A stretch of 64,000 nt of DNA from Thermoplasmatales archaeon SW_10_69_26. GTDB taxonomy: Archaea > Thermoplasmatota > SW-10-69-26. The notes under the pieces were generated by a model that worked only from the letters and a program-made list of their open reading frames with translations, was not told the DNA's origin and searched no databases. This document shows, piece after piece, positions 1-56,531 of this stretch; position 1 is the stretch's first letter, and the number at the start of each line of letters is the position of its first letter. Position numbers and translations under genes: made by a program. Where the stretch lies: contig PXUB01000029.1 in NCBI GenBank assembly GCA_003009755.1, positions 3,164-67,163 of the forward strand, in the 5' to 3' direction.

Positions 1-952
1 AGTCGCGGATCGAGCCCTCCTCCATCCGGGCTCGGTCGCGGGGCCGGGTCGGCTCGAAGCCCAGCGTGCGCATCAACGACATCTCCCGGGTCGTGCGACC
101 CCAGCCGAGCCCCATCACGCACAGCTGCAGCTTGACGGCGAGGCTGGCGGGGATGCCCAGCCAGGAGAGGAACGTGATGATCGAGCCGGTGAGCACCATC
201 ACGACGATCCAGCCGTGCAGCGGCAGCTGGGTGATCTCGTTGCCGACGGTCTCCATCGTGCGGCCCCCCAGCAGGAACCCGCCGGCGCCTATCGCGAGCC
301 CGCCGATCACGACGGCCGGCACCATCCCGACGGTGCCAGAGCCGACGAGCGGCGCGACGGCGTTGGCGACGTTGGAGGCGCCCGCCGAGAAGGCGACGAA
401 GCAGCCGCCGAGCACGACGATGCCCTGCTGCAGGCGGTGGGCCCGGTCCGTGTCGGCCTGCCAGAACTCCTCGAGGTGGCCGAAGAGGTAGCGGCCGGTG
501 ATCGCCGACAACCAGAACGCGGCCATCCCGGCCACGAACCACCAGGTGACGACCTCGCCGACCGTGCCCCAGTCGAGGACGCCGAGCGCGGCCCCCATGC
601 CGACGACGGCGCCGACCGCAGTATAGCTGGTGCCGGTCGAGACGCCGACGAGGTTCGCCACGAGGATGCTGAGACCGATGAACAGCATGACGGCGGTCGA
701 GGCGGCCAGCGTGAAGTGCTCCTCGGCGACGAACTCGGTGCCCAGCGTGTCGACGACGTTGGGGCCGACCACCAGGCCGCCGACGAGCGCGAACACGGCC
801 ATCAGCGCCATCGCCCAGCGTTTGCCGAGCACGCCGGCACCGGTGGCTGGCCCGAAGGCGACCCCGGTCGAGGATCCGCCGATGTTGACCCCGACGAAGG
901 CGGCGGTGACGACGCCGACGACGCCGAGGAGGCCCAGCCCGGCGATGACCAT
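1..952 (-). CDS. PiT-family inorganic phosphate transporter (partial, runs off the left edge)
   Basis: Translated by hand on the minus strand from ATG 952 (TTG 964 possible): MVIAGLGLLG...FVGVNIGGSSTGVAFGPATGAG, which is the PiT signature. Hydrophobic and open to position 1. Not in the ORF track. Confidence 0.85.
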   Translation of the reverse strand, partial: MVIAGLGLLGVVGVVTAAFVGVNIGGSSTGVAFGPATGAGVLGKRWAMALMAVFALVGGLVVGPNVVDTLGTEFVAEEHFTLAASTAVMLFIGLSILVANLVGVSTGTSYTAVGAVVGMGAALGVLDWGTVGEVVTWWFVAGMAAFWLSAITGRYLFGHLEEFWQADTDRAHRLQQGIVVLGGCFVAFSAGASNVANAVAPLVGSGTVGMVPAVVIGGLAIGAGGFLLGGRTMETVGNEITQLPLHGWIVVMVLTGSIITFLSWLGIPASLAVKLQLCVMGLGWGRTTREMSLMRTLGFEPTRPRDRARMEEGSIRD

Positions 953-1107
953 CGCGCTTGCCAAGCCCTCCGCCTCACAAGAACCTCGCGCTCTCGGCGG
1001 CCGGGGCTCCTCGGCGGCGTGGACCTGCCCTCGCCCGGGGGAACCGGGTCCCTGGCGCCTCTCCCGGCGAAAAGCTCTTGGCGACGTTCGGCCTAGGAGG
1101 GGAGGCG

Positions 1108-1527
1108 ATGACCCGTGCCGAGACGACCCCCCGGCGTTCGCCGTTCGCGATCGACCTCGTCTACGGGCTCGTGTTCATCGCGGGGTTCGCCTACCTCGCC
1201 CTCGTCGAGATGGACGCCCGCGTGGCCGCCTTCGAGGCAGGCATCGTGATCGGGTACTTCCTGCGCGTCTGGGAGAAGATGACCCTCTACGAGCAGGCGC
1301 TGGCCAGCCGGGTGTCCGAGGAGGCCCAGCGCCAGGTCGCCAGTGAGGTCGAGGCCCAGGTCGGCCCGGAGGTCGAAGATCACGTCGACACCGAGATGGG
1401 CGACGTCATCGCCGACGAGGTCGAAGACCAGGTCGCGCCCGAGGTCGAGGATCGGGTCGCCGAGGAGCTCGACGAGCGGCTCGAGGAGGAGGCCCGCGCC
1501 CGCGCCGACGGCTCCGAGGACGGCTGA
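1108..1527 (+). CDS. Membrane protein with two TM helices and an acidic repetitive C-terminal tail
   Basis: GGAGG RBS before ATG 1108; tail of EVEAQV/EVEDHV/EVEDQV/EVEDRV repeats. Confidence 0.8.
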   Translation: MTRAETTPRRSPFAIDLVYGLVFIAGFAYLALVEMDARVAAFEAGIVIGYFLRVWEKMTLYEQALASRVSEEAQRQVASEVEAQVGPEVEDHVDTEMGDVIADEVEDQVAPEVEDRVAEELDERLEEEARARADGSEDG

Positions 1528-1530
1528 AGC

Positions 1531-1989
1531 CTACGCCGAGCCCGTCTCGGGCTCCGCCTCGGGGTCGGGCCCGGTCGTTTCCTGGGCCCGACGCTCGGCG
1601 AACAGCCGGCCCGCCTGCACGAGCACGACGAGGTGCACGATCGCGACGAGCACGAACACCGTCACGTAGGGCCACGTCGTCTCGATCACGGTCTGCAGGT
1701 ACATCGTCAAGACCGTGACGCCGTCCAGCAGCCACAGGACGCCGGTCGCGATCAACGTGGCCTCCAACGCCCACTCGCGACCGTCGCGTAGCACGACGGC
1801 GAGCCCGCCGTGCACGATCGGGCCCACGAGAGCGACGAACAGCAACAACGCCGCGGACGCGATCGCGAACGTCTCCGTCACACCGGCGAGGATCGCCAAC
1901 CCCAGGAGGCCGGCCGCGACGGTGACCAGCATCCTGATGGCGGTGGCGATGGCTTCCAGCTTCACCAGAGAACGCACGTCCACAGTCAC
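1531..1989 (-). CDS. Hypothetical membrane protein (about 4 TM)
   Basis: Hydrophobic ORF with genome-like codon usage; start uncertain. Confidence 0.7.
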   Translation of the reverse strand: MTVDVRSLVKLEAIATAIRMLVTVAAGLLGLAILAGVTETFAIASAALLLFVALVGPIVHGGLAVVLRDGREWALEATLIATGVLWLLDGVTVLTMYLQTVIETTWPYVTVFVLVAIVHLVVLVQAGRLFAERRAQETTGPDPEAEPETGSA

Positions 1990-2112
1990 AGCCCCTCTAG
2001 GTCAGGGGACACCAAGACCCTTACGTTCTCGGCCAACCCCGACGCGAGCCACGGAACGGTGGGCGGCCGTTGGAACCTAGCTTGATAACCCCCAGCAGGG
2101 TTCGCCTCGCCG

Positions 2113-3198
2113 GTGGCGCACGTGAGCGACGAGGACGAGTTCTACACGCGCGAGAACCTGCTGTCGGCCCCTGTCGAACAGCTGGACCCCACGGAGGTCG
2201 ACACCGTGGCGGAGCTGCTGGAGGGCATGGCCGGCATGAGCTTCCAGGCGCGCAGCCTCGGCCAGTGCCTGCGGGTCTGGCAACGCGCCCTCGAGGACGG
2301 CGAGCGGCCCACGGTCATCCTCGGCGTCGCCGGCTCGCTGATCGCCGGCGGCATGCGGCGCGTGATGAGCCGCCTCGTCGAACACGGTCTCGTCGACGTC
2401 GTCGTCAGCGCCGGCTCCCAGCCCTACCAGGACCTCTACCAGGCCCGCGGCGAGGACTACGACCACTGGCGCGCCACCCCCGAGATGGACGACATCGAGC
2501 TGCGCGAGCTCGAGCTGGATCGCCTGTACGACACCCTCGTCGACGAGCGCAGGTTCGCCGACACCGACCAGCTTTTGGGCAGCATCGTCGGCGAGCTCGA
2601 CCCCGGCCGCTACACGACCCGGCAACTGTACGACCACCTCGGCGCCCGCTTCGACGACGACGAGAGCCTCGTCGTGCAAGCCCACCGCACCGGCACGCCG
2701 ATCTTCTGCCCGGCCCTCAACGACTCCAGCCTCGGCATCGGCATGGTGCAGGACCTGCTCGAGGCCCGCGAGGAGGGTCGCGAGGTCCCCACCCTGGACC
2801 CGATCCTCGACCACTACGAGCTGGCGCAGATCACCGGCGCCAGCGAGAAGACGATGGTGATTTACGTCGCCGGCGGCACGCCGAAGAACTACATCCAGCA
2901 GACCCAGCCGATCAACCACTACCTCGGCAACGACGTCGGCGGCCACGACTACGCGATCCAGATCACCGCCGACGCCCCCCACTGGGGCGGCCTGTCGGGC
3001 TGCACGCTCGAGGAGGGCCAATCGTGGGGCAAGATCGCCGCCGAGGCCACGCGCGCCACCGCCTACTGCGATGCGACGATCGGGCTCACGATGCTCGCCA
3101 CCGCGCTCTTCCAACAGCCCGAGCTGTGGGAGGATCGTGGGCGGCTGAGCTTCGACTTCGAGGACAACGAGCTGACGCTCGAACGCGAGGCCGCCTGA
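2113..3198 (+). CDS. dys: Deoxyhypusine synthase
   Basis: Motifs GSLIAGG, FCPALNDSSLG, GGTPKN and GGLSGCTLEEGQSWGK, with the active-site Lys retained. Confidence 0.93.
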   Translation: MAHVSDEDEFYTRENLLSAPVEQLDPTEVDTVAELLEGMAGMSFQARSLGQCLRVWQRALEDGERPTVILGVAGSLIAGGMRRVMSRLVEHGLVDVVVSAGSQPYQDLYQARGEDYDHWRATPEMDDIELRELELDRLYDTLVDERRFADTDQLLGSIVGELDPGRYTTRQLYDHLGARFDDDESLVVQAHRTGTPIFCPALNDSSLGIGMVQDLLEAREEGREVPTLDPILDHYELAQITGASEKTMVIYVAGGTPKNYIQQTQPINHYLGNDVGGHDYAIQITADAPHWGGLSGCTLEEGQSWGKIAAEATRATAYCDATIGLTMLATALFQQPELWEDRGRLSFDFEDNELTLEREAA

Positions 3199-3604
3199 GG
3201 GCACCGATCGAGCCACGGACCGGGGGGCCGAGGACCCACGAGCTGGGGTTCACACCGTCACCCGTTCATCGACAGGGTCCTTCGACGACCTCCCGTTGAC
3301 GACGGGACCCGAGGGAGGCCCCGTCAGGAGGTACCGACAAGCGAAAACTTGCGACGGTTGTGGCGTCCGGCTTCGGGGCGCTTCTCGGTTCCAACGTCGC
3401 AGACCCTGCTCACTTCGCCCACCATCCGAGAGGTGCGACCGAGGTGGACGGACCGAGCTCGGGCTCCCCCTCCGGGGGGTCCGACGGTGGCTACCGAGCG
3501 TCGGAGGCCGAGCGACGGACGTGCACGTCGACTTGATGCCGCACCCCGGTCGATGAGCCTCGTGTTCCTCAGACGTGAGTGGTGGCTGCCACGTCCGAGG
3601 CTAC

Positions 3605-3698
3605 GCACGGCCTCCGCGACGTCTGCGGTCGGCCGTGCTTTCGCCAGAGACCGCGTTCCATGGCCTCGAGGTCCCCGATCGAGAGCGGTCTCTGGCGA
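3605..3698 (+). repeat. 94 bp two-hairpin repeat, family D, copy 1
   Basis: 8 bp stem/18 nt loop, 2 nt spacer, then a 14 bp stem TCGCCAGAGACCGC/GCGGTCTCTGGCGA with a 30 nt loop. Same layout at 11881-11974. Confidence 0.85.
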
Positions 3699-3893
3699 TC
3701 CTCTCTTCGGGGGTCGCTCGGCTCATCGCCGGATCAGGCCGGATCGGAGATCCGGCCGCTTCCGAGACCGCGGGTCTGCCGGTCTCGGGCCGCACACGAG
3801 CGCTCGCTCGTGCTCTCGCGACGTCCGCACTCGCTCGCGCCCGTGGCGCTTCTCAGCCCCTCAGCTGGGCTGTGGACGAGAGGGGCTGAGAAG

Positions 3894-3966
3894 TGGGACC
3901 GCCCGAATTTGAATCGGGGTTAACCCGCCCCCAGCGGGCAAGGATACCAAGCTACCCCACGGTCCC
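3894..3966 (-). tRNA. tRNA-Pro (GGG)
   Basis: GGGACCG acceptor, anticodon arm GCCCG-CTGGGGG-CGGGT, T-arm CCCGA-TTCAAAT-TCGGG, discriminator A; CCA not encoded. Confidence 0.95.
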
Positions 3967-4001
3967 AGTGGAATGCGGGGAATCCCGCCAAACAGGGAAC
4001 C

Positions 4002-4010
4002 CGCTATAAC
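4002..4010 (-). promoter_or_regulatory. Putative TATA box of tRNA-Pro
   Basis: GGTTATAGC on the minus strand about 40 nt upstream of the mature 5' end, in a GC-rich background. Confidence 0.5.
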
Positions 4011-4164
4011 CGTTTCGGGAGCCCCCTCGACCGGCTCGATCCCTCTCGGCCTCTCTCCCTTGGATCTCCGCCTTCGAGAAGGCGTCTGCGCTCCGTCAGC
4101 CGGGGGTGGACAAGTGCCATCTCCGATGGGCTTAAGAGGAGAGAGAACGACTCTCGGCCACCTC

Positions 4165-4620
4165 ATGGACGACGCGGACACCGGAGGCGACACCGCTGAC
4201 GGCTCCGATCTGCGCGAGCGGGTCCGTCGAGCCCTGGCCGCGGAAGGCTTCAGCTGGGAGCTGTGGCAGAAGCCCGAGCGCGGCCAGATCTTCGGGATGA
4301 TCCGCCGAGACGGCGAGATGCAACTGCACGTCCGCTACTACGAGGACGACGTCGTCAAGGCCGAGCGCGAGCTCGCCAACGATTACGTCGAGCACCTGCT
4401 CTCCCCGCGCGTCTCCGCGCACGAGGAGGTCGAGGAGATCCTCGAGGACCACGGGCTCGGCGACGAGGTCGACGTCGAGGAGAAGCGGTTCCCGCCCCGG
4501 CACGACGGCGTGGACATGCCCAGGACCCGCACACGCTGGAAACCGCTCGTGGTGGGCGTGGGTGTCGCGCTCGTCGGCGCGGTCGCCGGCACGGGTCTTC
4601 TCTTCTCCGGCGGCGAGTGA
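4165..4620 (+). CDS. Hypothetical protein with a C-terminal TM anchor
   Basis: ATG 4165 about 30 nt after CTTAAG; acidic globular part and a hydrophobic C-terminus. Confidence 0.8.
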   Translation: MDDADTGGDTADGSDLRERVRRALAAEGFSWELWQKPERGQIFGMIRRDGEMQLHVRYYEDDVVKAERELANDYVEHLLSPRVSAHEEVEEILEDHGLGDEVDVEEKRFPPRHDGVDMPRTRTRWKPLVVGVGVALVGAVAGTGLLFSGGE

Positions 4621-4702
4621 CCGCCGGCGAGCCCCGCTGAACGCTCGTCTCACAGGGAACCGAACAGCGGCGGGTCCACGCTGGGACCCGCCGCCGGACC
4701 CC

Positions 4703-9805: not shown

Positions 9806-10078
9806 CCCGCCGACCGCCACGGCTTCGGCCCCGAACCTGAGGAAAGAGCCAAATACGTCCCCTCGGCGAGCCGAAGCCAACCCGGCCCGACCACGACCGA
9901 GCCTGCGCGCCCGGTCCCGCCCCGCCCCCCTCGGGCCGGGTTCCTCTCGGGCACCGTGCCGTGGATCTTCGGACCACACCCCTCCCCGGATGGCACGGTG
10001 CCCTTCACCCCTCCTCTCGACGGAAACGAACAGACCTTCACGACACCGTTGAAGAAGGCCCCGAACCTTCTCCATCCC

Positions 10079-10840
10079 GTGTTGGGGAACAGGCAGGCAA
10101 CGGTTAGCGTCAGCATCGTGTTGATCGTCAGCCTCTTCGCCACCGGCGGGGCCCTCGCCGAGGAGATCGAGGACCCGACGGGGACCGCCTGCGTCGGCGT
10201 GGAGGACGAGGCCGAGTGCGAGCAGCTCGCCGTCGCCAGCGACGGCGACGCGGAGAGCGACGTCCTCGCGGTCAGCGGGACCGGCGACGCCGACGCCGTC
10301 TTCGTCGCCGGCACGGGAACGGGCGACGCCGACGGCAGCGCGGTGGGCCTCAGCGGCACCGGGAACGCCACCGCCGTCTTCCTGGCAGCGAGCGGGACCG
10401 GCGACGCCGAGACCGAACGCCTGCGCATCGCGGCCGTCAGCGGCACCGGCAGCACCTCCGCCGAGGTCGTCGAGGTCAACGGCATGAACGACGCCGACGG
10501 CTGCGTCGCCGTCAGCGGGACCGGCAACGCGGACGCCGACTGCGGGTCCCCGGCTGGCCCGGCCGCCGTCAGCGGCTGCGAGAACGGTCAAGAGATCGAC
10601 CGCTCGGAGGCCTGCCGCGACCCCGACGAGCGCGTCGAGGCCGCGAACGCCGCCGCCTGCGACGCCGAGCTGGCCACCGCCGACGGCGACGGCCACGCCT
10701 GGTGCGGCGTCCAGATCGGCGGCTGCGTGCAGGTCATCTACGGCGCCGCCGCCGGCCCGGTCTTCGTCGGCGGGTACAACGGCTGCCAGGTCGGCGTCTT
10801 CTACGACGACAACGGCCACGACGACGCGCCGCTGCCGTGA
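10079..10840 (+). CDS. Secreted acidic protein with (A/L)VSGTGxA repeats and Cys-rich ends
   Basis: GTG 10079 about 25 nt after GTTGAAGAA; signal peptide ending GGALA; about 8 SGTG repeats. Confidence 0.75.
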   Translation: MLGNRQATVSVSIVLIVSLFATGGALAEEIEDPTGTACVGVEDEAECEQLAVASDGDAESDVLAVSGTGDADAVFVAGTGTGDADGSAVGLSGTGNATAVFLAASGTGDAETERLRIAAVSGTGSTSAEVVEVNGMNDADGCVAVSGTGNADADCGSPAGPAAVSGCENGQEIDRSEACRDPDERVEAANAAACDAELATADGDGHAWCGVQIGGCVQVIYGAAAGPVFVGGYNGCQVGVFYDDNGHDDAPLP

Positions 10841-11880: not shown

Positions 11881-11974
11881 GGACGGGCTCGGCGGTTTCT
11901 GTGGTCGCCCGTCCTCTCGCCAGAGACCGCGTTCCCCGTCCCCGAGATCCCCGATGGCGGGCGGTCTCTGGCGA
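11881..11974 (+). repeat. 94 bp two-hairpin repeat, family D, copy 2
   Basis: Same arm and loop lengths as 3605-3698; identical 14 bp arms. Confidence 0.85.
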
Positions 11975-12044
11975 TTCGTACGAACGCCTCGCCTGACGGC
12001 TCGCCGTTCGTACTCTCGGCGTGAAGTACCTCGAACGCTGCGGT

Positions 12045-12347
12045 CTACCCTTCTCGGTACTTCACGCCGAACCCACCACGAGGATGGTTCCAGTCGACGC
12101 TGCCGGGGGTGCACACGATGTCGCAGGTGCCGCACTCCACGCAGTCCTCGTACTGGAACGTCATCTTGCCGTCGACGAGCGTGAAGCAGTTCACCGGGCA
12201 CGAGTACATGCACATCCGGTGGGTGCACGTCTCGCAGATCTCGGGATCGATCGAGATGTGGGCGTGCTCCTCGTCGTCGAAGTTGTAGCTGGTCGCCCCC
12301 AGGCGTGCCTTGATGTCGAACTTCTCGTCGGTTAGTTGCTGGCTCAT
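12045..12347 (-). CDS. fixX: FixX-type ferredoxin
   Basis: CETC...CMYSCPVNCF and YEDCVECGTC...HPRGGFGV.YR.G; overlaps the fixC stop. Confidence 0.9.
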   Translation of the reverse strand: MSQQLTDEKFDIKARLGATSYNFDDEEHAHISIDPEICETCTHRMCMYSCPVNCFTLVDGKMTFQYEDCVECGTCDIVCTPGSVDWNHPRGGFGVKYREG

Positions 12348-15572: not shown

Positions 15573-15736
15573 CTGTCTGGTTAAGCAGGGGCCGCGGAGG
15601 ACACGAGGGATCGCCAAGGCCACGAAGGGCCTGTGCACTCGCCGCCGGGCGGCGTTGTCACGGCAGCTGCTCCCCGTTGTGCCCTGGCGTCCCTTCGCGT
15701 ACTTGGTGGTCCCCCCCCCGTTTCTTATCCTTACAG
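15573..15736 (+). mobile_element. MITE-like element, family B, copy 1
   Basis: About 93% identical (my alignment: 9 substitutions, 3 indel nt) to the reverse complement of 50355-50515; imperfect terminal IR CTGTCTGGTTAAG/CTGTAAGGATAAG (10/13); no ORF. Confidence 0.75.
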
Positions 15737-15798
15737 CGCGGCTCCCCCGGGACCCACACTTGAAGTACGAGGCTGACCCATCCCAGGACGGGCCCGAG

Positions 15799-28446: not shown

Positions 28447-28667
28447 TGAAGATCCTCTTTTCGACGGGGCCTAGCCGCCTCTCGACCGGGGAAAAGGAAA
28501 ATCGCTGTTAAGGAAAACCCCGGTCGGCAGCGTCCGGAGGCGCCGGTGCCGACCGTCTGGCGCCTCCGGAGAAGACGGATCTTCGATCCGTCCGAAACGC
28601 AGGCCCCAGCGCCGCTGACCTTGGGCGCTGTTGGATCCTCGCGCAGGGCTATGTCCGCCTGACGGGC
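28447..28667 (+). repeat. Multi-hairpin dispersed element, family A, copy 1
   Basis: About 90% identical to the reverse complement of 43812-44129 outside a 95 bp insert; diverged copy at 52944-53102. Confidence 0.88.
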
Positions 28668-28913
28668 AACGACACCATCGCTCGTCGTGGGTCCCCGACG
28701 ACCGCCGCCGTGCCTCCGCGACGAAGGACGAGAACCCACAGGCGCAGGGCAACGCTGACGCCGGAGCCCTCAGGCGTGCTGTCTGCCCCGCCGGCTTCGG
28801 CGCGCCGCCGGCGAGGACCTCCAACATCTCCTACCGCCGTCACGTCGTCGCGGATCAGGGGTGTGAACCCGTTCGCGTCGATGGCCGCACCAGCCGTGGT
28901 ACCGTCCGGTCCG

Positions 28914-43778: not shown

Positions 43779-43811
43779 GGCGCGGGACCCACGCGGGTCC
43801 GCTCGCGTCGA

Positions 43812-44129
43812 AGCTCGTCAGGCGGACATAGCCCTGCGCGAGGATCCAACAGCGTCTAAGGTCAGCAACGCTGGGGTCTGCGTTTCGGACGGATCGAAGA
43901 TCCGTTCTCTCCCGAGGCGCCAGACGGTCGGCACCGGCGCCTCCGGACGCTGGCGACCCCAGTTTTCTTCCGGAGATCGGCGACACCGTTCGGTCTCCGG
44001 AGAGGCCGAAGCTCCGCTTCGGCCGGATTGCGAGGGTTCCTGCCGCCAGGCGAACCCTCCATCTTAACAGCGAAGATTTCTTTTCCCCGGTCGAGAGGCG
44101 GCTGGGCCCCGTCGAAAAGAAGATCTTCT
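43812..44129 (-). repeat. Multi-hairpin dispersed element, family A, copy 2 (with a ~95 bp hairpin insert)
   Basis: Reverse complement matches 28447-28667; begins at the ybaK stop codon. Confidence 0.88.
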
Positions 44130-50231: not shown

Positions 50232-50354
50232 CGCGACCGGTCGATCCCAACCCTGGCTCGGCATAAGCGAAGGTTGTCAGGTCCCCCTACATGCGGGCCT
50301 GTGTGCCCGAACATGTTCGGGACCAGCGCGGCCGAGCGGGCCTGCAGACGGGGG

Positions 50355-50515
50355 CTGTAAGGATAAGAAATGGGGGGGACCACCATGTACGCGAAGGGAC
50401 GCCAGGGCACAAAGGCGAGCAGCTGCCGTGACAAAGCCGCCCGGCGGCGAGTACACAGGCCCTTCGTGGCCTTGGCGATCCTTCGTGTCCTTCGCGGCCC
50501 TGCTTAACGAGACAG
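50355..50515 (-). mobile_element. MITE-like element, family B, copy 2
   Basis: Reverse complement of 15573-15736; lies at the 5' end of the FKBP-like gene. Confidence 0.75.
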
Positions 50516-51729: not shown

Positions 51730-51964
51730 TGCCTCACCCGGGTGAGGCCGGCCGCTCGCGGGTGGCCCCAGCGGCCGCCTGCAGGCTCGGCCACGCGCTC
51801 GACGGGATCGAACCCGTGCTCGGCCGCCACCGGCCGGCGGGGGTCGAGGTCGCCTTGACGTCGTAGAGGACCCGCCGGCCCTCGGGCGTCTGGAGGGACT
51901 CGACGGCGACCACGTCGGTCCCGGCCGCCTCCACGATCCGCCGGCCAGTCTCGACGGCTTCCTC

Positions 51965-52276
51965 GGGCTGGGCGTCCTTGTCGCAGTGGGACCCTGGTCT
52001 GGGCAACGGGGCTGGCCTGGACAGCCGGTGGCGTCCCGAGACGCGGGGAAGATCGTTCGCGTCTCGGCAAAGGACGACCGCCGAGCGGTCGTCCGGACAG
52101 GCCTCCGCAGGTTCGATCACGAGAGCCGAAGGGGGGTGGCCCGGCTCTCGTGAGAGCCCGAGGGCGGCGAGGTCGCTCGCCTTCGGGCGGATCGCCAGGG
52201 CGCGGCGGCCACGGTTCGGGCCTTGGCGAGAGCAGGTCCGGCCGGAGGGAGGACGTGCGGAATCCTGCCCCCTGCA
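51965..52276 (+). pseudogene. tRNA-Leu pseudogene split into three pieces by two hairpin inserts
   Basis: 51965-52033 (leader + nt 1-51), 52098-52116 and 52260-52276 match consecutive parts of 52300-52402. Confidence 0.9.
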
Positions 52277-52317
52277 TCGCAGGGTTCTTCCAACGCGCTG
52301 GGCTGGGCGTGCTTGTC

Positions 52318-52402
52318 GCAGGGGTACCCTAGTCTGGGCAACGGGGCTGGCCTTAAGAGCCGGTGGCGCAGGCCTCCGCAGGTTCGAATCCTGCCCCCTG
52401 CA
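52318..52402 (+). tRNA. tRNA-Leu (TAA)
   Basis: GCAGGGG/CCCCTGC-A acceptor, CTGGC-CTTAAGA-GCCGG anticodon arm, long variable arm, GCAGG-TTCGAAT-CCTGC T-arm; CCA not encoded. Confidence 0.95.
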
Positions 52403-52520
52403 CTGACGGACTCGAGCCAAGGATGGCGGGGCAGGATGAGAACCCTGGTTCGATCCGGAGATTCGGCGGAGAAGGGGATGAATCTGCGGAGCGGCCGAAC
52501 GAGCACCGCGAGTTCGGCCA

Positions 52521-52550
52521 GAATCCTGCCCCCTGCACTGACGAACTCGA
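52521..52550 (+). repeat. Direct repeat of the tRNA-Leu 3' end plus trailer (att-like)
   Basis: GAATCCTGCCCCCTGCACTGACGAACTCGA, 29/30 identical to 52386-52415. Confidence 0.9.
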
Positions 52551-52943: not shown

Positions 52944-53102
52944 GAACATTTTTCGTTCCGAGGGCCTTGGCGTCTCTCGACAGGGTGAAAAAGACGGATC
53001 TTCGGCAACGAGGAAACCTCCTCGGGAGCGACCCAGCCGCCAGCGTCGCTGGTCTCGGGCGCGGTTGGATCCTCGCGCAAGGCTCCCTCGGCTTGACGGG
53101 CA
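52944..53102 (+). repeat. Multi-hairpin dispersed element, family A, copy 3 (diverged, internally deleted)
   Basis: Shares CTCTCGAC.GGG.GAAAA, GACGGATCTTCG, CCAGCG.CGCTG, GTTGGATCCTCGCGCA and TGACGGGCA with 28447-28667. Confidence 0.75.
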
Positions 53103-55909: not shown

Positions 55910-56206
55910 TCACGATCCGCCGTTGCGTTTCGAGGTTCGACGCGTCCGATCGCTGATGGTCGGCGCCTCGCCCAGTCGCGCCTCGATCTCGGCTTGCCGG
56001 TCCTCGTGGCTGCGCTTCTTCTTCAGCAGCCGCTCGGCCTGCGGGTTCAGGGACGTCGGGCAGCGTTGGCAGTTGACGGTGCCCAGCTCGCCCTCGATCC
56101 GCTGGATCTTCTCCTCGAGGCGCCGGTACTCGCGCTCGAGGGTTTCGCGCTCGTACTCGTCGGGCTCGTCCAGGCCGAGCCACCGCTTGACCGTCGCGAA
56201 CACCAC
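55910..56206 (-). CDS. Small helical-hairpin/coiled-coil protein, paralog 1
   Basis: VKRWLGL..YERE.L.REY.RLE.KIQR; paralogous to 56250-56531. Confidence 0.85.
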   Translation of the reverse strand: MVFATVKRWLGLDEPDEYERETLEREYRRLEEKIQRIEGELGTVNCQRCPTSLNPQAERLLKKKRSHEDRQAEIEARLGEAPTISDRTRRTSKRNGGS

Positions 56207-56249: not shown

Positions 56250-56531
56250 TCAGTCCCGGCGCCGGGCCTGCCCGCCGGTCTTCGGGGGCCCGCCGAGCTT
56301 GGTCTCGACCTCGTCCTGGCGCTTGCGGAGCTTGCGCATCTCGTCGATCAAGCGCCGCGCCTTCGGGTTCTGCTTCTTCTTGCTCTTGGCGGTGGGCGTG
56401 TCCTCGAGCTCGCGCTCGCGGCGCTGGATCTTGCGTTCCAGGCGTTTGTACTCGCGCTTCAGGGCCTCGCGCTCGTAGCCTTCGGCTTCGTCCACGAGCC
56501 CGAGCCACTGCTTGAGCTTCCCGAGCACCAC
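56250..56531 (-). CDS. Small helical-hairpin/coiled-coil protein, paralog 2
   Basis: GTG 56531: VVLGKLKQWLGLVDEAEGYEREALKREYKRLERKIQRRE...; highly basic. Confidence 0.85.
   Translation of the reverse strand: MVLGKLKQWLGLVDEAEGYEREALKREYKRLERKIQRRERELEDTPTAKSKKKQNPKARRLIDEMRKLRKRQDEVETKLGGPPKTGGQARRRD

Follow-up and report, generated by a model that had tools for sequence, protein, structure and literature searches.

The haloarchaeal PATEs of Haloquadratum are heterogeneous non-coding elements with near-terminal palindromes, which cause no target duplication, may be as short as 52 bp and derive from the ends of IS200/IS605 elements (PMC3119063). The RAYT-mobilised REP, BIME and REPIN repeats of bacteria are short GC-rich extragenic palindromes that form intergenic arrays, often lie 3' of genes and keep the complementarity of their stems. 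In addition, work on att repeats at tRNA 3' ends and on the disruption of archaeal tRNA genes by mobile genetic elements (MGEs) provides a precedent for tRNA fragments beside an intact gene (PMC3293823; review PMC8371274). Here, we compare with these systems a tRNA-Leu(UAA) locus in a 64-kb window (the whole stretch of DNA analysed) from Thermoplasmatales archaeon SW_10_69_26, in which the gene is preceded by a tandem copy split by two inserts and followed by a module of tRNA 3'-end copies and hairpins. We consider it probable that the upstream copy is a dead paralogue at a recombination-prone locus, broken open by three copies of lineage-specific palindromic repeats without open reading frames (ORFs), similar to PATE or REP elements and hereafter referred to as cassettes. 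The locus is a real, if odd, hotspot of repeat DNA, and most likely neither a functioning tRNA nor a novel type of RNA gene.

All the comparators were short-read metagenome contigs (L001, L002, L007, L124, L130-L134 and L137). The upstream pseudo-tRNA copy is referred to as U1, the real tRNA-Leu(UAA) as U2 and the module downstream of it as U3; their components are as follows.

51965-51982, plus strand: copy of the 18-nt 5' leader, with 1 mismatch (repeat search)
51983-52033, plus strand: first 51 nt of U1, spanning the acceptor 5' strand through to the variable arm (5' side) (repeat search, sequence)
52034-52097 (64 nt), plus strand: insert 1, exactly one two-hairpin cassette, in the variable-arm loop (U1 against U2, stems, nhmmer)
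52098-52116, plus strand: 3' side of the variable arm, T-stem 5' strand and T-loop TTCGA (matches 52369-52387, 19/19)
52117-52191, plus strand: insert 2 cassette 1, TCACGAGAGCCG..CGGCTCTCGTGA (52117-52153) and GCCCGAGGGCG..CCTTCGGGC (52156-52188), then GGA (stems, alignment, fold)
52192-52261, plus strand: insert 2 cassette 2 ('family D'), TCGCCAGGGC..GCCTTGGCGA (52192-52229), a weak second hairpin and GGA (alignment, nhmmer)
52260-52276, plus strand: copy of the tRNA 3' end, with the 3' part of the T-loop, the T-stem and acceptor 3' strands and the discriminator A (matches 52386-52402, 17/17)
52285-52291, plus strand: TTCTTCC, putative weak TATA element at -33..-27 of the real tRNA (read from the sequences)
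52318-52403, plus strand: tRNA-Leu(UAA), functional-looking, U2 (ARAGORN; Rfam 50 bits)
52404-52427 (24 nt), plus strand: tRNA 3' trailer, homologous to that of relative L137 (blastn)
52428-52444, plus strand: inverted copy of the tRNA T-arm/acceptor 3' strand, GGGGCAGGATGAGAACC, forming the 5' arm of U3 (repeat search)
52447-52520, plus strand: GGTTCGA (5' half of the T-arm) and one cassette, in U3 (sequence, fold, nhmmer)
52521-52550 (30 nt), plus strand: third copy of the tRNA 3' end with 13 nt of trailer, an att-like direct repeat (repeat search)

The preliminary description of this DNA had proposed a full tandem tRNA copy, in order, split by hairpin-only DNA, and the three collinear pieces of U1 bear this out: the first matches the real gene over 69 nt (51965-52033 against 52300-52368, 90%, consisting of the 18-nt leader and tRNA nt 1-51), and the other two are identical to it. 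The 17-mer of the tRNA 3' end (GAATCCTGCCCCCTGCA) is present in three copies in the window, against 0.2 expected; the third, at 52521, had been missed, and so had U3 as a whole. The substitutions reported previously were all found. Seven changes fall within the 69-nt block, comprising G5T, U8G, A14G, three of the seven anticodon-loop bases (CTTAAGA to CTGGACA) and one in the leader, such that U1 has lost U8, A14 and the G5:C68 pair of the acceptor stem, and has a C at position 37. The unit is 126-128 nt long without its inserts. With its collinearity, the flanking leader that it includes and its degenerate substitutions, U1 has the features of a tRNA pseudogene generated by tandem duplication. 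ARAGORN and Rfam recognised a single real tRNA-Leu(UAA) at 52318-52403 and no tRNA in the unspliced U1 (no Rfam match even at E<=1). The real gene decodes UUA, which accounts for 5 of the 1355 leucine codons in the 45 predicted genes of the window, a rarity already suspected.

The real tRNA had been said to have no obvious TATA box, a statement that should be softened: the TTCTTCC at -33..-27 is weak as a candidate, but it coincides in position with TTTATCC in L131 and TTCTTCT in L130. U1 has no counterpart of this TATA-like element, which the real gene and its orthologues carry at -33..-27, because the duplication ends at the 18-nt leader. Our preferred reading of U1 (window 51965-52290) is that of a dead tandem paralogue of the neighbouring tRNA-Leu(UAA), with its leader included and its promoter not. 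The U1-U2-U3 arrangement is identical in the independently recorded metagenome contig L001 (99.9-99.99% identity), which differs from the window elsewhere by an 84-nt indel and single-nucleotide polymorphisms, and it is therefore not a one-off assembly accident.

Insert 1 has the layout TCC, CGAGACGCG..CGCGTCTCG, GCAAA, GGACGACCGC CGA GCGGTCGTCC and GGA, with two hairpins (52036-52067 and 52072-52094), each with a perfect 10-bp stem, and a single-stranded DNA fold with a z-score of -5.5. Its ends are precise and it produced no target duplication (GGCG/CAGG in U2 against GGCG/64 nt/CAGG in U1, the slashes marking the junctions). Insert 2 (~143 nt) consists of two cassettes, and its boundary is ambiguous by a GA dinucleotide. 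Its first hairpin (52117-52153) has a perfect 12-bp stem and the hairpin at 52192-52229 carries TCGCCA/TGGCGA arms. The hairpins, confirmed by a stem search, and the GA ambiguity are as already described for the two inserts.

The cassette unit of ~60-95 nt comprises a class I hairpin starting with TC and ending with GA, 2-4 nt, a shorter class II hairpin and (G/A)GA. Class I hairpins have a stem of 9-15 bp and a loop of 12-30 nt, and include the families TCCCGAGACG.., TC(A/G)CGAGAGCC.., TCGCCAGAGACCGCG.. and TCCGGAG..; class II stems are of 8-10 bp and of the GGCCGAAC.., GGACGNCC.. and ACGTGCCC.. types. There is one cassette in insert 1, two in insert 2 and one in U3, with two in the U3 of L002 and two in the first module of L133. 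A detector based on this grammar yielded 10 matches in the window, against 0-2 in 20 Markov simulations, and the cassettes tested, seven out of seven, fold as two adjacent single-stranded DNA hairpins (z -2.5 to -6).

The preliminary description had asked whether the inserts occur beyond the locus; they do, with homologous cassettes in plain intergenic DNA at ~3.6, 11.9, 28.5 and 43.9 kb of the window.

3605-3698, minus strand: dispersed family-D cassette, in the same orientation as tRNA-Pro, which lies 195 nt upstream (alignment, nhmmer)
11881-12070, minus strand: intergenic family-D cassette (11881-11974) and further hairpins (alignment, nhmmer, self-BLAST)
28533-28592, plus strand: cassette TCCGGAGGCGCC..GGCGCCTCCGGA, GAA, GACGGATC TTC GATCCGTC (grammar, fold, nhmmer)
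43784-44128, minus strand: second copy of a ~250-nt repeat, with an extra 95-nt insert (self-BLAST, alignment)

Both hairpins of cassette 2 of insert 2 are covered by its alignments with 3605-3698(-) and 11881-11974(-) and with sequences in L131, L133 and L002 (nhmmer E 4e-13 to 8e-11). The cassette type of insert 1 and U3 matches 28532-28596(+) and 43885-43948(-) (nhmmer), both of which lie inside a ~250-nt dispersed repeat with ~90% identity between its copies at 28448-28695(+) and 43784-44128(-) (self-BLAST) and a partial third copy between csp and ADH, at 53031-53102(+). The 95-nt insert in the 44-kb copy (43968-44062) is composed of three hairpins only, two of which resemble those of U3, and has exact ends and no duplication (TTAAG/GAAAAC in the 28-kb copy against TTAAG/95 nt/GAAAAC). 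Together with insert 1 (U1 against U2), it provides the second of two independent filled/empty pairs. The left flanks of the cassettes differ (GGCG/, TTCGA/ and TTTTC/), with no conserved target oligonucleotide. The cassettes are, thus, a dispersed family that enters DNA as discrete, exact-ended units without target-site duplication. Of the process suggested earlier, by which hairpin cassettes would be inserted into structured-RNA genes, the insertion is upheld by the two filled/empty pairs, but the targeting is not, as cassettes are also found in ordinary intergenic DNA.

Two features of the dispersed copies are worth recording in their own right. The ~250-nt repeat starts with a T-tract (CTCTTTTCGACGGGG) and each of its copies lies just downstream of, and co-oriented with, a gene; it could be a MITE-like element or a shared 3'-untranslated-region/terminator module. 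Hairpins of the same grammar extend from the 3605-3698(-) cassette to 3892, such that the 290 nt downstream of tRNA-Pro(GGG), 3600-3892(-), consist almost wholly of hairpins, with a 14-bp stem (3849-3893) directly at the tRNA end. No copy of the tRNA-Pro 3' end was found in these 290 nt.

The order downstream of the real tRNA is trailer, inverted 3' end, GGTTCGA, two hairpins and GAATCCTGCCCCCTGCA with 13 nt of trailer. The cassette of U3 comprises the hairpin TCCGGAGATTC..GAATCTGCGGA (52454-52490), GC and the hairpin GGCCGAAC..GTTCGGCC (52493-52519). The closing 30 nt repeat the 3' segment of the intact tRNA directly (52386-52415 against 52521-52550, 29/30, 97%). U3 and U1 are split at an identical point of the T-loop (TTCGA/TC...GA/(A)TCC), and the T-loop break, being common to the modules derived from the tRNA 3' end, need not be an independent hit in U1.

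The comparison of strains, which had also been called for, revealed modules beside tRNA-Leu(UAA) in which cassettes are swapped, added and shuffled, and a tRNA block that is inverted in some lineages. L002 is 98% identical to the window, but its U3 contains 112 nt where that of the window has one 37-nt hairpin. These 112 nt are the first 112 nt of insert 2 of the window, with exchange boundaries exactly at the feet of the hairpins, and cassette 1 of insert 2 is thus found, in L002, within the module downstream of the tRNA; the copy in insert 2 is a slightly decayed version of the perfect L002 copy. L131 and L133 encode an identical ADH protein, yet their modules are recombined, the 5' parts being paired with different sets of hairpins. 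Both have a degenerate pseudo-tRNA in the equivalent upstream position, in which additional DNA separates GGTTCGA from a CCCCTGCA-like end, and downstream modules of U3-like design, ranging from ~139 nt (the simplest, in L131) to ~218 nt, with the order trailer, GCAGGGGCAGGA.. (inverted 3' end), ..GTTCGA, hairpins and AGA(A)TCCTGCCCCCTGCA; the terminal module closes with a degenerate 3'-end copy (GACCCTGCCCCCTAC). The relatives L130 and L137 have a plain tRNA and no modules. The cassettes therefore differ in number and kind between strains at the tRNA-Leu(UAA) locus.

The loci syntenic via csp and ADH carry tRNA-Leu(UAA), but the tRNA block is inverted relative to csp(-ADH) in L130 and L131-L134, and not in the window and L137; the inverted copies of the tRNA 3' end in the modules could serve as the substrate for such an inversion. 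The closest locus syntenic via the upstream FKBP-like gene is that of L124 (78% nucleotide identity), with homology ending at ~51886, ~80 nt upstream of U1, and no tRNA was found at the loci syntenic via this gene. Among the matches listed, L007, a distinct Thermoplasmata metagenome-assembled genome (MAG), has two tandem modules after tRNA-Leu(UAG) (1000-1460(-)); in each of them, two hairpins lie between a 16-nt inverted copy and a direct copy of the tRNA 3' end, a window-like design with different hairpins. The matches listed also include tandem tRNA-Leu(UAG)/(CAG) genes in Poseidoniales (MGII; L010, L019, L021, L029, L044, L054 and L086), lying head-to-tail ~135 nt apart, both intact and with identical 3' halves including GAATCCTGCCCCCTGCA. 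A tandem duplication of this tRNA type is thus common in the phylum, although in MGII both copies are intact isoacceptors (UAG, CAG) without inserts. The scan of the genome collection with the 17-mer of the tRNA 3' end was unspecific, the matches listed including Chloroflexota, Acidobacteriota and MGII, and a metagenome scan with a shared 22-mer of the D and anticodon arms yielded two unrelated contigs only.

The DNA immediately upstream of U1 also differs between strains. At 51734-51960(-) lies what is left of a small ORF (TPEGRRVLYDVKA / DLDPRRPVAAEHGFDPVERVAEP), frameshifted and homologous to the L124 ORF downstream of the FKBP-like gene. In L001, a 90-aa gene that runs into the pseudo-tRNA is called here (51734-52006(-)); it had no Pfam match and we rejected it as a gene, given that it corresponds to this remnant. 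At 50515/50516, the window lacks 84 nt present in L001 (1082-1165). These include a TATA-like CGCTTATTTGG together with the start codon (ATG) and the greater part of the lipoprotein signal peptide of the FKBP-like gene (full sequence in L001: MRFERSLLALFLAISLVTVGCA), and this gene is therefore startless in the window. The deletion begins exactly at the end of a 165-nt repeat (50354-50515, inverted at 15573-15737, 93%).

The cassettes work like PATEs, which is not to say that they are PATEs. Like PATEs, they are non-coding, of tens to ~100 bp, with two palindromes, no target duplication and no long terminal inverted repeat in common with a transposon, and their families are heterogeneous, dispersed and strain-specific, often nesting in other repeats. 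REP and BIME sequences are a looser analogue: the cassettes share with them the features mentioned above, but they have no GTAG-type head, are present in low copy in 64 kb of an archaeal host with no RAYT gene seen in the window, and consist of two different hairpins rather than an inverted REP doublet. Each cassette hairpin is an inverted repeat, as in MITEs, but no target-site duplication flanks any unit.

If U1 is a dead paralogue opened by palindromic repeats, its history may be pictured as follows. The cassette in the variable loop probably entered the pseudogene as an independent event. For the T-loop break, the most economical account is not a second independent hit but inheritance, or copying from the modules following the tRNA through gene conversion or unequal recombination at GGTTCGA, with a subsequent turnover of cassettes; these modules have the order inverted tRNA 3' end, GGTTCGA, cassettes and direct 3'-end copy. 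The stretches over which U1 and the real tRNA are 100% identical may have been kept by continuing gene conversion from the live gene. The cassettes themselves would spread at the DNA level, either in trans, through an enzyme recognising single-stranded DNA hairpins, as for IS200/IS605-derived PATEs, or by hairpin-promoted template switching.

Several observations weigh against this reading. The 64-kb window, its gene-poor gaps, the L137 island and the related loci yielded no transposase, integrase or IS200/IS605 gene, and neither IS200/IS605 tnpA/tnpB nor matching ends were detected in the 64 kb and the short contigs of the lineage; the driving enzyme is therefore hypothetical. The hairpins of the cassettes lie at their very ends, whereas those of IS200/IS605 ends are set back by 10-20 nt. 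Moreover, each cassette combines two unlike hairpins, with unrelated class I and class II stems and no conserved target, and the geometry is thus not that of a PATE. Copies per family are few (2-3 in 64 kb) and heterogeneous. Most cassette clusters are co-oriented with the upstream gene, which could reflect a role at transcript level, although the 44-kb insert is an exception and the trend is suggestive rather than significant. Several comparator contigs break inside repeats, so the module order in L131 and L133 could be partly misassembled. Finally, the identical T-loop split in every module, and the L007 modules of like design, hint at an organisation beyond random colonisation.

This hint can be taken further, in one of two ways. 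The TC...GA-bounded cassettes could be undescribed non-autonomous mobile or recombinase-driven units for which the tRNA-Leu 3'-end modules, with their GA/TC split, are a preferred landing pad or exchange site, or the modules could be processed to hairpin RNAs via a minihelix mimic. We consider such a system unlikely.

The locus as a whole behaves like a hotspot of recombination and integration, the signs of which could also be interpreted as stacked att remnants, on the assumption that tyrosine-integrase elements repeatedly hit the T-loop/3' end of tRNA-Leu(UAA) and were then deleted, the inserts being attP arms or element ends. The 30-nt direct repeat, from the T-loop to 13 nt past the tRNA end, is a classic signature of integration at a tRNA 3' end; the degenerate 3'-end copy closing the terminal module in L131 and L133, the inversion of the tRNA block relative to csp between lineages, the synteny break ~80 nt upstream of U1 in the comparison with L124 and a 4.4-kb island of ORFans between tRNA-Leu and csp in L137 are consistent with it, and in archaea integrating MGEs are known both to disrupt tRNA genes and to leave pieces of tRNAs behind (PMC3293823). 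However, the DNA separating the repeats amounts to only 105 nt (window) to 190 nt (L002) of dispersed hairpin repeats and contains no element body, integrase gene or other MGE gene, and no integrase lies nearby. Furthermore, integration does not duplicate the 5' leader and 5' half of a tRNA, both of which are copied in U1; cassettes are also found far from any tRNA; and the longer, ancestral-looking trailer adjoins the tRNA rather than the distal copy. The att-like sequence had no match in 2.9 million viral contigs, and BLAST searches of phages and plasmids with the locus and the family-D cassette yielded either nothing or tRNA-level matches in haloarchaeal plasmids only; these collections may lack this lineage. 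The products of the MGE-driven tRNA disruption described in PMC3293823 are, in addition, spliceable. We therefore regard an origin from att remnants as improbable. The possibility, raised at the outset, that the insert ends might be those of a known insertion sequence or integrative element found no backing either, as no transposase, integrase or element body was detected nearby.

The L137 island (266-4640) consists of ~4.4 kb of small ORFans, one with a weak ParE-like match (E 0.03). No att repeat or integrase was found in it, and it may be an old island at the same tRNA. Scans of viral contigs with three hairpin patterns were also tried, and recovered nothing, or chance terminator-like palindromes without flanking homology.

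A role at the RNA level has to be considered separately from mobility. The pseudo-tRNA and modules could be co-transcribed with the tRNA as structured RNAs, with a closing helix mimicking the acceptor/T minihelix, such that RNase P or tRNase Z could free hairpin RNAs, or with hairpins that stabilise or terminate transcripts. Elements undergoing tRNA-like processing exist in archaea, such as the t-element upstream of the 5S rRNA in Haloferax. In the fold of U1 (z -5.2), the acceptor stem is intact and an extended T-stem encloses four hairpins, and in L131, L133 and L007 the 5' arm of the module pairs with the whole 3' end as a 12-bp minihelix. The mostly shared orientation of cassette clusters and upstream genes also fits this idea, as do the stems that keep pairing through double changes between copies (CACGAG/CTCGTG against CGCGAG/CTCGCG; TCGCCAG/CTGGCGA against TCGCCAA/TTGGCGA). 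However, GU pairs are as frequent in the sense stems (22/449) as in the antisense (21/451), and the difference in folding energy between strands has no consistent sign. This strand-symmetric pairing fits symmetric DNA palindromes and provides no support for a strand-specific RNA. The loops and the hairpin order are not conserved, the content varies between 98%-identical strains and neither of the close relatives L130 and L137 has the modules. In the window itself, the minihelix of U3 is disrupted, with only 4/7 acceptor pairs, and an inverted DNA duplication would yield such a "minihelix" automatically. Rfam yielded no match, and nothing resembling a promoter element precedes U1. A structured RNA is, on balance, an improbable explanation, and the tRNA-scaffolded non-coding RNA (ncRNA) envisaged in the preliminary description gains no positive evidence, the stems being strand-symmetric and the copy having no promoter-like element. 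Three other readings of the modules, as C/D-box RNAs, retroelement primer-binding sites or integron attC sites, were dropped after inspection by eye for want of conserved motifs; in the case of attC, GCCGAAC..GTTCGGC resembles R''/R', but the hairpin is too short.

It is very unlikely that the arrangement is an artefact of short-read metagenomic assembly across tRNA-derived repeats. The contigs L002, L132 and L134 do end inside repeats, but the window and L001 share an identical U1-U2-U3 despite their differences elsewhere, the repeated stretches are of <=69 nt, shorter than the k=119 given in the name of the L001 contig, and analogous modules are present in separate samples (L131, L133 and L007).

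Multi-intron tRNAs with introns at non-canonical positions exist in some archaea, and their structured extra sequences may lie at the variable arm and T-loop, as here, but the possibility that U1 is a functional tRNA gene from which the archaeal splicing endonuclease removes two such introns is scarcely credible, because, although ARAGORN (default settings) calls a class II 'tRNA-Ser(GGA)' once both inserts are removed in silico, a script searching each exon-intron junction for bulge-helix-bulge motifs (3-nt bulges separated by a 4-bp helix) found none at either insert in any register (three for insert 2), with 1-2/4 central pairs and flanking helices of 0-1 bp, the invariants listed above are lost, a Leu-type body with a Ser anticodon would miscode, no promoter element precedes the copy and the insert repeats also occur outside tRNAs. 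The doubt already expressed about a functional intron-containing tRNA was, thus, well founded.

The window as a whole is a segment of archaeal chromosome with a G+C content of 69% and an acidic proteome, and its genes include those for deoxyhypusine synthase, aIF2-alpha, Pelota, the primase small subunit and a class I CCA-adding enzyme. For both aIF2-alpha and the neighbouring dehydrogenase, every named homologue is from Thermoplasmatota (59-65% identity), and the only closer relatives are metagenome contigs. The cumulative GC skew has its minimum (-0.24) at ~26-28 kb, which may be a replication origin or terminus, and around this point the orientation of cassettes and genes flips from mostly minus to mostly plus. 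Self-BLAST also revealed two further internal repeats: one (56085-56206 / 56407-56531, 76% over 125 nt) lies close to a pair of small, adjacent genes on the minus strand, and the other, at 10243-10554 within the ORF 9956-10840, is tandem-like.

A dead paralogue broken open by palindromic repeats explains the "exploded" tRNA without new RNA biology. The locus documents a miniature family of hairpin-pair repeats with clean insertion footprints in a scarcely sampled, uncultured lineage of Thermoplasmatota, and a fast-rearranging tRNA-Leu locus in which modules are added, swapped and inverted between strains. It also calls for caution in the annotation of tRNAs and ncRNAs in high-GC archaeal MAGs, in which ORFs are called over such repeats, for example of 90 aa in L001 and 147 aa in L133. 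If, instead, the modules were a landing pad for cassettes or were processed to hairpin RNAs, they would be an organised system rather than junk. Should the cassettes be mobilised by a hairpin-recognising enzyme, the two filled/empty junctions would define the element ends needed for finding that enzyme.

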